DNA from: Candidatus Margulisiibacteriota bacterium
GTDB lineage: Bacteria > Margulisbacteria > WOR-1 > O2-12-FULL-45-9
Assembly: GCA_034723395.1 (NCBI GenBank)
Contig: JAYEOW010000031.1
Coordinates: 1 to 38,019 of the forward strand
Direction of reading: 5' to 3'
Length of the DNA: 38,019 nucleotides
A program made the position numbers and the translations under genes. Below the pieces are notes generated by a model that saw nothing but the letters and a program-made list of their open reading frames with translations, was not told the DNA's origin and made no database searches. This document shows, one piece after another, positions 9,565 to 29,549 of the stretch (its first letter is position 1; each line of letters begins with the position of its first letter).

Positions 9565-9592
9565 ACAAGTTTTTGCCTTTATCCTACGATAA
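9565..9592 (+). promoter_or_regulatory. sigma28-like promoter #1
   Basis: ACAAGTTT-N12-TACGATAA. Confidence 0.7.
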
Positions 9593-10772
9593 ATATAATA
9601 CAAACCCTTCTTTTGGTAGAATCGCAGATTTCCAAAAGAGGAACAAGGTTAATAAAAGAGGGGGAAGGGCAATAGGTTATCTTAAAGGACTAAATTTATT
9701 ACCTCGCAGAAGGATACTTGCCGGATGGAAGGAGCATTTTAACCGCAGGGGAATGGATGCTTCTCCTCTCCTTCAAAAATTCAAGGGTATCTTAAATGGC
9801 TTGTCCTGGAAGAACGTGAGAAAAATATACGACCTTCATTTTAAGTTCAGGTCAGCGAGAGCGCAAATATTAGCTGATCAGTCAAGGTTGGGGGTTGCAG
9901 CTACTATTAAGAAATCCGTGGATCTCTATCGCGGGACGCTAGCGGAATTGATGGGGATATTGGTTGATAAAAAAATCAGTGCTAAATTAGCCGTCTGTGT
10001 TATCGGGAGTGTTGCCCGAAAAGAGCAGGTGCCCCAGTCAGATGTCGATTTTGTTTTTATTGCGGATAAGAATCTTAATAAGCGCGAAATCGATAAACTA
10101 AGGTTGCTTTATAGGCAAACCATCGATTTATTAACGGTATTTGGCTTCCCTTTTGAGGCGGCTACCGGCATATTTGACACAGCCGGCCGGATTACCGGTA
10201 AGAAGCGTGACGTAAAAGCTAATCAAGGCGTTCAAGTACGCTCCCTTCAAGATATCTCTTTCCTGTTCGGGAATGAAGGGATCATGCTTGAGTACAGGGA
10301 TGCCCGGCTGCGAAAAGTTTATAAAAACGCCAGGGAGAACGTGGCGATCATTTTTGATGAGATGCCCGTAGAGGTGACCAGCATAAAGTTGGCGCTGCGC
10401 TTCTTCTCTTTTACTAAACATATCGCGTCTATCCATTTACGAAAAAGATTCGGTTCTACTAACAGCGCGTTGAGGGGGCTTTATGAAGCCGGTCTGTTGG
10501 AAAAAAGAGAGCTTGGCCGGCTGCGGATAATACTGGACCGGTTGTTGTTCTTGCGGTTGAATTTAACATTGCCGGACGAAACATTGCTCTCCGAAGAAAG
10601 GATGAAAGACTATCTTTCAGGTATTAGCGGGGAGACATCTCCTGTCAGAATAGCTGAGAATCGGGTCTTTATGGGAAGAAATATCGATAAAAATCATGTG
10701 TTAAAACTGATCAAGCGGGATGTGGAGTATATCGAAGATTTCATAGAAAGATTTCGAGCCCGTTTGTTATAA
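9573..10772 (+). CDS. Pol-beta superfamily nucleotidyltransferase (DUF294/GlnD-GlnE-like NTase plus helical substrate-binding domain); start uncertain
   Basis: AVCVIGSVARKEQVPQSDVDFVFI; C-terminal STNSALRGLYEAGLL...LLFLRL resembles DUF294_C/GlnD. The TTG at 9573 lies inside the promoter; the first in-frame ATG is at 9753. Confidence 0.7.
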   Translation: MPLSYDKYNTNPSFGRIADFQKRNKVNKRGGRAIGYLKGLNLLPRRRILAGWKEHFNRRGMDASPLLQKFKGILNGLSWKNVRKIYDLHFKFRSARAQILADQSRLGVAATIKKSVDLYRGTLAELMGILVDKKISAKLAVCVIGSVARKEQVPQSDVDFVFIADKNLNKREIDKLRLLYRQTIDLLTVFGFPFEAATGIFDTAGRITGKKRDVKANQGVQVRSLQDISFLFGNEGIMLEYRDARLRKVYKNARENVAIIFDEMPVEVTSIKLALRFFSFTKHIASIHLRKRFGSTNSALRGLYEAGLLEKRELGRLRIILDRLLFLRLNLTLPDETLLSEERMKDYLSGISGETSPVRIAENRVFMGRNIDKNHVLKLIKRDVEYIEDFIERFRARLL

Positions 10773-11264
10773 AGAAAAAATCCTCAGCTGAGGACTTAAT
10801 TTTTCGTGGTTTTTCAATATCCATAATGCGATCTCTCTCTGATTTACGGTGTGCAGAATTACATATTTCTCTTCAGTAAAGGCCCTTCCTTTTTTCACAT
10901 CAAGTTTGACCGCTTTTGCAGGGACGACATCTAATGCTTTGGTTATTTCGTGCAGCGCCCGGACGAAATAGGACAGGTAGGGGGTGTTGGTCTTGGTCCA
11001 ATGCATAAAACGGAGCTCAAAGCCATGCTTAGGGAAACTTTCGTTCCCCCAATAAAGAGTGATGTTCCTCGCTTTAAGTGCGGACAAATAACCTTTCAAT
11101 TCAGTTTCTGTGGGTGGGGGAAGTCTTCTGGTGGCGCGTAATCCGTTGACATAAGTTTTAAACGTTTGAGTATTCATGCCTAAGACCTTAGAATAATCAA
11201 AGGGGGTCCTTTGCGGCTTCCGCCTAATTAGTTTTATTAATGATCGAGTTATCCCCTTTATCAT
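10767..11264 (-). CDS. Hypothetical basic protein (orphan)
   Basis: 165-aa ORF filling the gap between genes, preceded by promoter motif #2; no family recognised. Confidence 0.7.
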   Translation of the reverse strand: MIKGITRSLIKLIRRKPQRTPFDYSKVLGMNTQTFKTYVNGLRATRRLPPPTETELKGYLSALKARNITLYWGNESFPKHGFELRFMHWTKTNTPYLSYFVRALHEITKALDVVPAKAVKLDVKKGRAFTEEKYVILHTVNQREIALWILKNHEKLSPQLRIFSL

Positions 11265-11273
11265 TCCGGATAT

Positions 11274-11301
11274 TCATCCTTTATTATCCTTAAAAATTTC
11301 A
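11274..11301 (-). promoter_or_regulatory. sigma28-like promoter #2
   Basis: Minus strand TGAAATTT-N12-AAGGATGA, 9 nt before ATG 11264; the weakest -10 match of the set. Confidence 0.5.
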
Positions 11302-11324
11302 CTTTTTTATGATATGCTAGCCTC

Positions 11325-11954
11325 GTGGGCAAACAAAAACAGATCGAGTATTTTGAGGGCCTGTTGTATAAACATGGTCCCAGCCATGAAGCGCTCGATT
11401 GGAACAGTAAAGAGAGCCAACAGCTGCGGGCCGAGGTCCTAAAAGAGATATTGGTTTACGGAAAGAAATCTACCCATATTTCACTGCTTGATGTCGGTTG
11501 CGGGTTTGGCGACCTTTTTAAATACCTCAAAAAAGAACATAAAATCTGCTATACAGGCTACGATATTTCCTCTAAAATAATAGACGAAGCCAGGAAAAAA
11601 TATCCGCAGGCCCATTTTGAGGTTAGGGATATCCTGGAAGATCAAAATGTCCCAAAATTTGATTATGTTTTTTGCTCCGGAGTTTTTAATATCCGGACAA
11701 ACGAGATTAAAGAACATAAAACGCATGTCCGATCGATGATAGAAAGGATGTATGGTTTGGCAAAGTGCGGGGTGGCGATCAACTTCTTGAGCGAAGGGCG
11801 TTTGCCGCCGGCCGATCCGGAGGGATTGAATGCGGGGCGCTATTTTTATTTTAATCCGGAGGAGATCGTGAATTATTGCCGGCATATAACGGATGATTAT
11901 ATCCTAAGACACGATTACCATCCGGGCGATTTTACGGTATACTTGTTAAAATGA
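11325..11954 (+). CDS. Class I SAM-dependent methyltransferase
   Basis: LLDVGCGFG, YTGYDIS, FDYVFCSGVFN. Confidence 0.9.
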   Translation: MGKQKQIEYFEGLLYKHGPSHEALDWNSKESQQLRAEVLKEILVYGKKSTHISLLDVGCGFGDLFKYLKKEHKICYTGYDISSKIIDEARKKYPQAHFEVRDILEDQNVPKFDYVFCSGVFNIRTNEIKEHKTHVRSMIERMYGLAKCGVAINFLSEGRLPPADPEGLNAGRYFYFNPEEIVNYCRHITDDYILRHDYHPGDFTVYLLK

Positions 11955-27851: not shown

Positions 27852-27870
27852 TTATTGCAGGGATCAATTT

Positions 27871-28228
27871 ATGGCAAGTCCTACGATTAAAATAGCGCGC
27901 TATCCTCCTGTATTTAAGAGAGCTTTTTTGGAGCTCTCCAGCGGAAAACTTGCGCGCGCGAGAAAATCTTTAAAAGGCAGAACAAAATGTGGTTTGGGCG
28001 GGGACCTTTGTCAGGCCATGCGTGGTTGCGGGAGTGGTTGAGTTCTCCTGTAACGGGGAAGATTTTGAAAAAGCAATGGTCGGCCATTTCTCCTTATTGA
28101 GTGTTCACCGGGATATCCCTAAGATCCTCAGCCAGGGTCATTTTAACCAAAAAAACACGTGGATATTTATGGCGGGGATGTCCAGCCAGCGCAGTACAGG
28201 TGTTCACTTGTTTGACCCCACTTTTTAG
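27871..28228 (+). pseudogene. Probable frameshifted orphan gene, possibly a CheD/YfiH-like Cys-His enzyme
   Basis: ATG 27871 gives MASPTIKIARYPPVFKRAFL...; the reading appears to continue in the +1 frame (open from 27974) as VVWAGTFVRPCVVAGVV...AMVGHF...WIFMAG. Confidence 0.45.
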
Positions 28229-28240
28229 ATTGTGTATACT
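28212..28240 (+). promoter_or_regulatory. sigma70 promoter of serS
   Basis: TTGACC-N17-TATACT, 8 nt before ATG 28249. Confidence 0.8.
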
Positions 28241-28248
28241 TATTTTTA

Positions 28249-29520
28249 ATGCTTGACCCAAAATTAATTCGTAATAATCCGGATGCGGTCCGAAAAGGGC
28301 TGAAAAACCGCAAGGCGGATGCCTCACTGGTCGATCGATTTCTTGCTATTGACGAAGAATGGCGTGAATTAACCTTAGAGATCGAAGAAATGAAGGCGAG
28401 ACGTAATAAAGTATCAGATCAGATCGGGATCCTCAAGAGGAAAAAAGAGAAAGCCGACAATCAGATCGAGGAGATGAAGGAGCTTTCCTCCCGCGTAAAA
28501 GAATTGGACGAAGAATATGCCAAACTTGAAGAAAAATTAAAAGATCTAAGTTTAGAAATGCCCAACATCCCTCACGTATCGGTCCCGGTTGGGTTCGATT
28601 CGCGCGACAATATCGAAGTCCGCAGTTTTGGGGAGAAGAAAAAGTTCGGATTCAAAGCTAGATCTCACGACGAGATCGGGAAAAAACTTGGTATCCTGGA
28701 TTTTGAAGCGGCTGCCAAGATATCGGGTTCACGTTTTGTGGTTTATCGAGGTCTCGGAGCGGCGCTCGAACGGGCTTTGATCAGCTTTATGCTTGACCAG
28801 CATACCAAAGAAAACGGTTACGCCGAAGTCCTCCCCCCGGTACTGGTTAATCCAAAAAGTATGTTAGGGACGGGGCAGCTCCCTAAATTCGAAGAAGAGA
28901 TGTTTCATCTAAAAGACGATGGTTTTTATCTAATCCCAACCGCGGAGGTCCCGGTCACTAACCTTCATCGAGAAGAGGTGTTGAAAGTTGATAGGCTCCC
29001 CATTAAATATGTCTGTTACTCTCCATGTTTCAGAAGAGAAGCGGGATCGTACGGGAAGGATGTTAAAGGGATCATCCGTCAGCATCAATTCAATAAAGTT
29101 GAGCTGGTGAAGTTTGCTGAGCCGGGAAGATCTTATGACGAATTGGAAAAACTAACTAAGGATGCGGAGTCGATCCTTCAAAAATTAGAACTTCCTTACC
29201 GGGTGGTAGAACTTTGCAGCGGAGATCTGGGTTTTTCTTCCGCAAAGACTTACGATCTCGAAGTCTGGTTCCCCTCCGAGAACCAGTATCGAGAGATATC
29301 TTCCTGTTCTAACTTCGAATCTTTCCAGGCCCGCCGTGCCGGGATAAAATATAAAGCTGATCCGAAAGCAAAGCCCGACTTTTTGCATACTTTAAATGGT
29401 TCCGGCCTGGCAGTGGGGAGGACCTTTGCCGCGATCCTCGAGAATTATCAGCTGAAGAATGGATCAATTAAGGTTCCCCGGGTTTTACGGCCATATTTAG
29501 GCGGGATCGAGCAGATCTAA
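28249..29520 (+). CDS. serS: Serine--tRNA ligase
   Basis: [43 protein letters not shown]. Confidence 0.97.
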
Positions 29521-29521
29521 C

Positions 29522-29549
29522 GCAAGTTTCCCCCCTTTTGATCCGATAA
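29522..29549 (+). promoter_or_regulatory. sigma28-like promoter #8
   Basis: GCAAGTTT-N12-TCCGATAA, squeezed into the 34-nt gap after serS. Confidence 0.75.

Follow-up and report, generated by a model that had tools for sequence, protein, structure and literature searches.

Class 3 flagellar promoters of Escherichia coli and Salmonella follow the consensus TAAAGTTT-N11-GCCGATAA, and the sigma-28 promoters of late genes in Chlamydia reportedly serve a set of developmental rather than flagellar genes within a small genome, with few known targets that are said to form a single class. The Margulisiibacteriota and Saganbacteria are uncultured sister lineages of the Cyanobacteria about whose transcription, to our knowledge, almost nothing is known, and among the papers listed by searches of one literature library, none deals with sigma factors or promoters of these lineages. 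Here we analyse a window of 38,019 bases, the entire contig JAYEOW010000031.1 (C31) of a Margulisiibacteriota genome, and a two-box motif that occurs at eight places in it and that the original prediction had taken for a sigma-28-like regulon. The eight sites quite probably represent two classes (A and B) of sigma-28-type promoters, most likely read by two conserved sigma factors of the FliA/WhiG family.

The nearest precedent, by analogy, is the FliA regulon of Bdellovibrio bacteriovorus. In the sections of that study cited here, TTAAG-N16-CCGATA is reported in 92 of 140 mapped attack-phase promoters, and FliA is described as a global regulator of many non-flagellar and uncharacterised genes (PMC3627812). 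The spacing between the boxes in our genome is equal to this (GCAAG-N16-nCGATA and TGAAA-N16-nCGATA), and a sigma-28-type promoter has likewise spread far beyond flagellar genes, into much of the genome, with many uncharacterised proteins and regulators among its targets. Unlike the system described in those sections (PMC3627812), the present genome has two -35 classes, two FliA-family sigma genes and one promoter class before rpoD; it has no recognisable flagellin, its targets are largely genus-specific orphans, and its promoters are predicted from sequence. In Campylobacter jejuni, the cited part of a further study describes sigma-28-dependent non-flagellar proteins that are co-regulated with the flagellar type III system and exported through it (PMC2764114), a possible model for class B orphans without signal peptides, for which export is hypothetical; unlike this genome, Campylobacter has a complete flagellum. 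According to the portion of a 2026 preprint used here, promoter prediction in this phylum (Margulisbacteria) often yields incomplete lists.

The genome comprises 1.68 Mb in 55 contigs, with a GC content of 45% and an estimated completeness of 97%. Genes were called from the longest open reading frames (ORFs) by codon-usage scoring and greedy choice, giving 1569 genes, 92.5% coding and 7.5% non-coding DNA. Sites were scored with a two-class gapped position weight matrix (PWM) at a cut-off of at least 14 bits, using the reversed, non-complemented genome as a control. The scan returned 116 class A and 26 class B sites, compared with 11 and 3 in the control, which gave none of either class at 20 bits or more. 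Class A has the summary form TGAAATTT-N14-CGATA (PWM consensus aAAgTGAAATTT-N14-CGATAaatAtaTag), with 89 sites in mostly non-coding DNA; class B has the summary form GCAAGTTT-N14-CGATA (PWM consensus tgAtGCAAGTTTT-N13-CGATAaatatagTg), with 22 non-coding sites and 23 sites above 30 bits. Thus, 77-85% of the sites fall within the small non-coding fraction. Furthermore, 81-88% of them face a gene start (94/116 in class A, 23/26 in class B), while eight class A sites and one class B site face a gene end or lie antisense.

The spacing between the boxes is likewise fixed across the genome. TGAAAT-Nx-GATA has 85 matches at x = 17 (67 mostly non-coding) versus 4-14 at each of the other 13 spacers between 8 and 21, and AAGTTT-Nx-CGATA has 25 matches at x = 14 (20 non-coding) versus 1-9 at other spacers. 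An unbiased scan of intergenic DNA for dyads of 4-mers ranks TGAA-N19-GATA (71 versus 8.5) and GCAA-N18-CGAT (32 versus 3.9) at the top, once hairpin-forming dyads are excluded. Spacing scans, dyad scan, PWM and orientation all bear out the fixed-spacing, intergenic, gene-directed motif of the original prediction. Three of the outcomes that it had named as fatal did not materialize: the motif is not equally frequent inside coding sequences, not symmetric between strands and not free in its spacer.

The two classes have a common -10 box, CGATA(A/T), the same geometry and the same downstream region, and differ only at -35, where class A has an A-tract followed by TGAAATTT and class B has (AT)GCAAGTTT. 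CGATA is the best-conserved block in both, with the variants CGAAA, TGATA, GGATA and AGATA. The -10 box CGATA(A/T) expected of a sigma-28-type promoter is therefore present, with the C lacking at three of the window's four class A sites, and the two -35 boxes TGAAATTT and GCAAGTTT are each identical to the E. coli consensus at six of eight positions, at a strictly fixed spacing. In particular, the -10 core CGATAA and the AAGTTT within the class B -35 box are shared with the class 3 promoters of E. coli and Salmonella; unlike there, the spacer is one base longer and the first two -35 bases are GC or TG, not TA. The -10 box and a geometry equal to that of Bdellovibrio FliA promoters uphold the sigma-28-like character that had been proposed. 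The idea of a single regulon under one motif gives way to two discrete classes, and the suspected CAAGTTT and TGAAAT subclasses are as discrete as had been surmised. At one locus (G000:C37 ~1720-1780), a 147-aa gene has a class B site and, 60 nt further downstream, a class A site in tandem.

All eight sites in the window are present with the predicted 8-mers and an exact 12-nt spacer. Four of them (11301-, 18548+, 24825- and 27824+) belong to class A, with scores of 19.5-26.4 bits, and four (9565+, 15522+, 19366+ and 29522+) to class B, with 32.7-41.4 bits (Table 1); for the two on the minus strand, the number given marks the upper end of the 28 nt. None of the eight has a TTGACA or TATAAT hexamer at the spacing proper to a canonical sigma-70 promoter. 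Window statistics are only suggestive, because the degenerate pattern AARTY-N16-GATR, which covers all eight sites, has 12 matches in the window versus 4.70 +/- 2.22 expected, and one of 100 shuffles reaches 12. Four of the 12 matches are additional ones within coding sequence. It is the genome-wide test, unlike the window alone, that settles the reality of the motif.

Table 1. Predicted promoters and the accessory island in the window
Feature	Position	Strand	Details
Class B promoter (predicted), ACAAGTTT-N12-TACGATAA	9565..9592	+	38.5 bits; 5' of weakly nucleotidyltransferase-like gene
Class A promoter (predicted) of 165-aa orphan (10767-11264)	11274..11301	-	26.4 bits
Class B promoter (predicted) of 952-aa orphan (15583-18441)	15522..15549	+	32.7 bits; Shine-Dalgarno-like GGGAGG between
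Class A promoter (predicted) of 222-aa accessory sigma factor (18582-19250)	18548..18575	+	23.1 bits
Class B promoter (predicted) of 259-aa orphan (19432-20211)	19366..19393	+	39.7 bits; no Pfam family
Class A promoter (predicted) of 876-aa adenylate/guanylate cyclase gene (22159-24789)	24798..24825	-	19.5 bits
Class A promoter (predicted)	27824..27851	+	21.8 bits; then 56-codon ORF (27871-28041) after 20 nt
Class B promoter (predicted) of 84-aa orphan (29555-29809)	29522..29549	+	41.4 bits; no Pfam family
Extra weak class A-like site, 5' of patatin-POTRA-Omp85 gene (25462-27816)	25410..25437	+	17.1 bits
Sigma-70-type promoter (predicted) of serS, TTGACC-N17-TATACT	28212..28240	+	contrast case
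12.7-kb accessory island between cysS and serS	15505..28248	.	contains six of the eight sites

The genes behind the eight sites differ in how clearly they can be delimited. The nucleotidyltransferase-like gene behind 9565+ has an ATG at 9753 and a longer TTG frame from 9573, and its DUF294/NTP_transf_2 match reaches an E value of only ~2e-6. The 165-aa orphan matches no Pfam family, even at E 0.5, and its mRNA is probably leaderless, because the ATG lies only 10 nt past the -10 core. The ATG of the 222-aa sigma gene, whose product has the regions Sigma70_r2 and Sigma70_r4, lies 7 nt past the -10 core, which is again a leaderless spacing. The site 24825- is the weakest of the eight, with the -10 variant AGATA, an ATG 9 nt past the -10 core and a Guanylate_cyc domain in the product; its score is borderline, lying between the cut-offs at which the control gives none and 11 sites. 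The class A site 27824+ is followed by the 56-codon ORF and by a 79-codon ORF (27989-28228). The pseudogene that had been placed behind it is unsupported, because the only match of this stretch is a marginal tblastx match (E = 0.010, 19 residues) to the gene that order-level relatives carry between cysS and serS. The extra site 25410+, absent from the original prediction, has a score in the range where the reversed control also scores.

If a -10 box stands before leaderless or short-leader mRNAs, its distance to the start codon should be fixed, and the distances found support the promoter reading. Specifically, a start codon lies exactly 7 nt past CGATA at 11 class A sites (nine ATG, two GTG) and an ATG exactly 10 nt past it at nine, in both cases with no Shine-Dalgarno sequence between, while most other class A sites lead into a GGAGG-like box, with an ATG 16-50 nt past CGATA. 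This arrangement is not specific to class A: start codons at most 12 nt past the -10 box occur at 25 of 81 sigma-70-type sites and at 36 of 96 class A sites, and leaderless mRNAs therefore seem to be common in this organism generally.

The canonical sigma-70 class, cTTGACA-N16-18-TAtAAT, is represented by 99 intergenic seeds. The genes behind it include those for EF-Tu, GroES, NusA, DnaE, Rho, TopA, S1, S16, SecG, HU, MetK and GlnA. In the window, sigma-70-type sites lie 5' of hldE (5996-) and of the LEA2 gene (25408-) as well as of serS, in agreement with the original prediction that neighbouring housekeeping genes use sigma-70 boxes: sites of the TTGACA/TATAAT type precede serS and hldE, and the genome-wide class is likewise of housekeeping character.

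The three promoter classes differ strongly in what lies behind them. We searched the first gene downstream, at most 300 nt from the site, against Pfam at E values of at most 1e-8 for class A and the sigma-70 class and at most 1e-6 for class B, the laxer threshold for class B working against the result that follows. No family was found for 19 of 23 class B genes and 57 of 95 class A genes, compared with 20 of 81 in the sigma-70 class (Fisher test, p = 7e-7 and p = 3.8e-6, respectively), and the enrichment of orphan over core genes that had been proposed as a check is thus present in both classes. The class B genes without a family include those for proteins of 3665, 1911, 1838, 1152, 952 and 768 aa; of the four assigned genes, one encodes HisS (its site lying at a distance of 263 nt), one encodes a Ser/Thr kinase, and two stand behind low-scoring, probably false sites.

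Besides its orphans, class A has targets with a recognised family: RpoD, a 777-aa sigma-like protein, the sigma factor of the window, three Ser/Thr kinases, PP2C, two RelA/SpoT ((p)ppGpp) proteins, HD and GAF-PAS proteins, the cyclase, CheR, PFK, PGK, PGM, two PPDK_N, two GH16 and one GH116. The non-housekeeping character ascribed to the targets therefore holds in part: the enrichment in genes without a family is strong, but class A also precedes rpoD, glycolytic and (p)ppGpp genes. For the same reason, and with the class A site before rpoD recurring in 11 of 11 relatives, the sites lend no support to a purely life-stage or host-contact programme, as had been suggested. Counting operons, class A would cover ~96 units with ~167 genes and class B ~24 units with ~44 genes of the 1569, so that the very large regulon foreseen amounts to ~120 transcription units and ~13% of genes.

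An all-versus-all BLAST of the targets gave only seven related pairs, and the targets are therefore not paralog families. Nor is there a compositional sign of recent foreign origin, because their GC contents (0.452 and 0.451) equal that of the genome (0.452). Searches for orphan functions in Pfam at E values up to 0.5 returned only a weak FliK match, and the ESM Atlas gave no usable match for a 699-aa protein and the 952-aa protein. Among the 22 class B products at sites above 30 bits, 16 lack a hydrophobic N-terminus (maximal 15-residue hydropathy in residues 1-45 below 1.0), and many such N-termini are polar and look disordered.

The sigma genes of the genome encode RpoD (351 aa, a conventional group 1 sigma), an extracytoplasmic function sigma (223 aa), sigma-54, the 777-aa sigma-like protein, the 222-aa sigma of the window and two FliA/WhiG-family proteins of 196 and 246 aa, which are the fliA/sigD/whiG-like genes that had been suggested as candidates. 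A sigma-54-like pattern, TGGCA-N6-TTGC, has 10 intergenic matches at that spacing versus 0-1 at adjacent spacings, which fits with the sigma-54 and enhancer-binding-protein genes present in the genome. The best solved relatives of the 196-aa and 246-aa proteins are FliA and WhiG; both proteins score below the curated TIGR02479 cut-off of 189.6 bits (75.1 and 135.6 bits, respectively), and the two proteins, both of them conserved, have differing region 4 recognition helices.

The 196-aa sigma lacks region 3, has FliA as its best solved relative and carries a near-canonical region 4 helix. We surveyed 109 genomes of Margulisiibacteriota/Saganbacteria that are at least 80% complete, 55 of which belong to the same taxonomic class as the present genome. 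The 196-aa sigma has a single-copy ortholog in 55/55 genomes of that taxonomic class, with 57-81% identity (except in two genomes, whose copy is cut at a contig end), and matches in 107/109 genomes of the phylum. A class A site lies ~480 nt upstream of its gene in 5 of 10 loci. Furthermore, an ORF of 66-83 aa (SPVLRSSWKFA, LAKRFV) overlaps or abuts its start in 8/8 relatives (L088-L095) and is translationally coupled to it; this ORF (G000:C46 ~1272-1380) has no Pfam family and is a candidate cognate regulator or anti-sigma factor of the 196-aa sigma.

The 246-aa FliA is found in 53/55 genomes of the taxonomic class and is encoded within the flagellar rod operon. In 4/4 relatives, the co-directional order is a class B site, the FliK-like gene, a small gene, a TTGACA-N17-TATAAT site, FlgF, FlgG and further genes, FliA and FlgB. 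With FliA in a flagellar operon downstream of a predicted sigma-70-type promoter, as in E. coli and Salmonella, this string would correspond to the classical two-step flagellar hierarchy. The two genomes without a FliA match (G038 and G113) still have class B sites, and the missing matches are probably assembly gaps: in G038 the adjacent gene, FlgC, begins at the edge of a contig, and in G113 FlgC is likewise not found, though FlhA is present.

Gene neighbourhood, breadth and possible autoregulation point to the flagellar FliA as the probable reader of class B, and on the same grounds we lean towards the 196-aa sigma as the reader of class A. In this arrangement, RpoD would run most housekeeping genes from TTGACA-N17-TATAAT. 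From class A, the 196-aa sigma would run rpoD and further sigma genes, glycolysis, signalling by (p)ppGpp and kinases, glycoside hydrolases and numerous orphans; from class B, FliA would run the FliK-like gene that borders the flagellar cluster and, beyond it, hardly anything but orphans, among them proteins of 952 to 3665 aa. The 222-aa sigma of the window was also considered as the reader and rejected: it has no ortholog in the 108 other genomes of the phylum, where its best matches are RpoD orthologs (37-47% identity over residues 31-124 only), and it therefore cannot read a phylum-wide motif. It is an accessory class A target, not the regulator.

Both motifs are conserved far beyond this genome. 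The class A pattern occurs in 55/55 genomes of the taxonomic class and 100/109 of the phylum; for class B the figures are 55/55 and 92/109, with much lower counts per genome outside the taxonomic class and 0-2 matches per genome for the reversed-pattern control. In 41 sampled relatives, each genome has both exact patterns (5-21 class B and 6-100 class A matches), compared with 0-1 matches of the reversed patterns. The class A site before rpoD stands at the same place in this genome and in the 11 relatives, in which no TTGAC-type site lies within 1.1 kb upstream of rpoD. The FliK-like gene is conserved in 27/30 relatives, and a class B site lies 53-155 nt upstream of it in 8 of 12 loci with sufficient upstream sequence.

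Conservation of the promoters is not matched by conservation of the genes they precede. No homolog of the 952-aa class B target was found in 40 relatives, and for the 259-aa target a search of 5.8 billion proteins, limited to a length window, returned nothing but the protein itself. The 12.7-kb accessory island, where six of the eight sites are located, carries the 952-aa orphan, the accessory sigma factor, the 259-aa orphan, DUF374, B12-radical-SAM, the 876-aa cyclase, LEA2 and patatin-POTRA-Omp85 genes and has a GC content like the rest of the genome. In relatives, the gene order is K-channel, DUF2148, hexapeptide transferase, cysS and serS; the last two are immediate neighbours at six family-level loci and lie ~0.7-1.1 kb apart at nine others. 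In 20/20 relatives, the 700 nt downstream of cysS contain no site of either class, which indicates an insertion in this genome, not a conserved slot. The gene for the 84-aa orphan (orf84) and its class B promoter sit between serS and a Zn-ribbon gene, two genes that are 24 nt apart in relative L110, and only for orf84 does the single-gene insertion of the original prediction apply. The promoters are ancient, many of the genes they precede are restricted to a genus or strain, and newly gained genes therefore appear to have been plugged into two sigma programmes.

The likeness of the two classes invites a simpler account, in which one sigma-28-type factor reads both and the ATGCAAG box is an extra activator site or a tolerated -35 variant. 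The -10 box and the downstream region are shared by the classes, the -35 boxes share xxAAxTTT in the same register, and one gene has both site types in tandem. We nevertheless consider this unlikely, given that the -35 sequences are bimodal rather than graded, that the mixture model is stable with 23/26 class B sites above 30 bits, and that two conserved FliA-family sigmas with different region 4 recognition helices are present. Class A could also be the housekeeping promoter of the lineage, read by RpoD, with an incidental bias towards orphans; its sites are as numerous as recognisable sigma-70 sites and stand before rpoD, glycolytic and RelA/SpoT genes. A canonical sigma-70 class coexists with it, however, before the genes for EF-Tu, GroES, NusA and others, RpoD is a conventional group 1 sigma, and target content differs strongly between the classes, all of which makes this account very improbable. 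Still harder to credit is that the boxes are transcription-factor operators, or belong to a dispersed repeat or mobile cassette, instead of being promoters. Many targets are recent insertions, and a cassette-borne sequence is in that respect conceivable; yet the half-sites are unrelated in sequence, similarity stops within ~40 nt, orientation and start-codon distance are fixed, the same site is kept before orthologous rpoD and FliK-like genes across genera, and the targets share no sequence families.

Several points weigh against two-class promoters read by two FliA-family sigmas. Promoter activity, transcription starts and the assignment of sigma factors to classes are deduced from the DNA, and the pairing of each sigma with its class draws on neighbourhood, breadth and possible autoregulation. 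Another candidate reader is the 777-aa protein (G000:C33:3291-5624), which has C-terminal sigma regions 3 and 4, an N-terminal extension of ~500 aa and a predicted class A promoter with leaderless spacing before its gene; G113 has a 761-aa counterpart, and no long form of this kind turned up in the FliA-family search of G038, which is 89% complete and has both motif classes. Of 10 loci of the 196-aa sigma, five (one with only 230 nt upstream) lack the class A site before the gene, and of 12 loci of the FliK-like gene, four lack the class B site. Hits of either class below ~20 bits include false positives (an SmpB fragment and a sigma-54 fragment), the Pfam thresholds were unequal, and the crude gene call over-extends some starts, the first in-frame start after a site having been taken as the start.

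The flagellar gene content likewise tells against a conventional FliA regulon. FlhA, FlgB, FlgC, FlgF/G and the weak FliK-like gene are present (C55, C46 and C16), and the targets include the FliK-like gene (class B) and a CheR gene (class A). The FliK assignment itself is weak (Flg_hook, 24.2 bits versus the Pfam cut-off of 29.8). Six-frame family searches of this genome, with its estimated completeness of 97%, found no flagellin, FlgM, hook or hook-associated proteins, so the classical late FliA targets are absent or unrecognisable; unlike in E. coli and Salmonella, neither the targets nor their neighbours include a recognised FlgM, flagellin or hook-associated gene.

A more far-reaching but doubtful idea is that class B represents the 'late substrate' regulon of a type III export machine derived from a flagellum, whose flagellin and hook proteins have been lost or replaced beyond recognition. 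FliA of the rod operon would then drive a FliK-like ruler and exported, fast-evolving, genus-specific proteins, and the sigma without region 3 would act as a co-primary factor above rpoD. We keep this as a tentative possibility because most class B products lack a hydrophobic N-terminus. If it were true, the class B giants (1152 to 3665 aa), mostly without signal peptides, would leave the cell to make contact with partner or host cells.

Two further features of the window stand apart from the promoters. At 6081-6715, an MNT-like nucleotidyltransferase (96 aa) and a HepT-like RNase (115 aa) are encoded by a pair of genes with overlapping stop and start, which is a typical toxin-antitoxin module. 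At 411-431 lies a copy of a hairpin repeat that is dispersed through the genome, TCCCTCTCCC - 3 to 5 nt - GGGAGAGGGA, and is not followed by a T-run. Its loose pattern has 58 matches genome-wide, 33 of them intergenic, and its dyads outrank all promoter dyads in the intergenic scan; the repeat looks like a repetitive extragenic palindromic (REP)-type element.

The features that are new compared with the known systems are the two discrete -35 classes, the two conserved FliA-family sigmas, one of them without region 3, the conserved predicted alternative-sigma promoter before rpoD, the strong tie to orphan and newly inserted genes, and conservation across the phylum. The analysis provides three testable promoter models for the phylum, which may help to group 'dark' genes by co-regulation, to annotate leaderless starts and to select promoters when genetic tools are built for these lineages. 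In this organism, ~13% of the genes would belong to two predicted alternative-sigma programmes, the gene of the primary sigma factor itself would stand behind an alternative-sigma promoter conserved across genera, and newly acquired and orphan genes would be preferentially wired into the two programmes.

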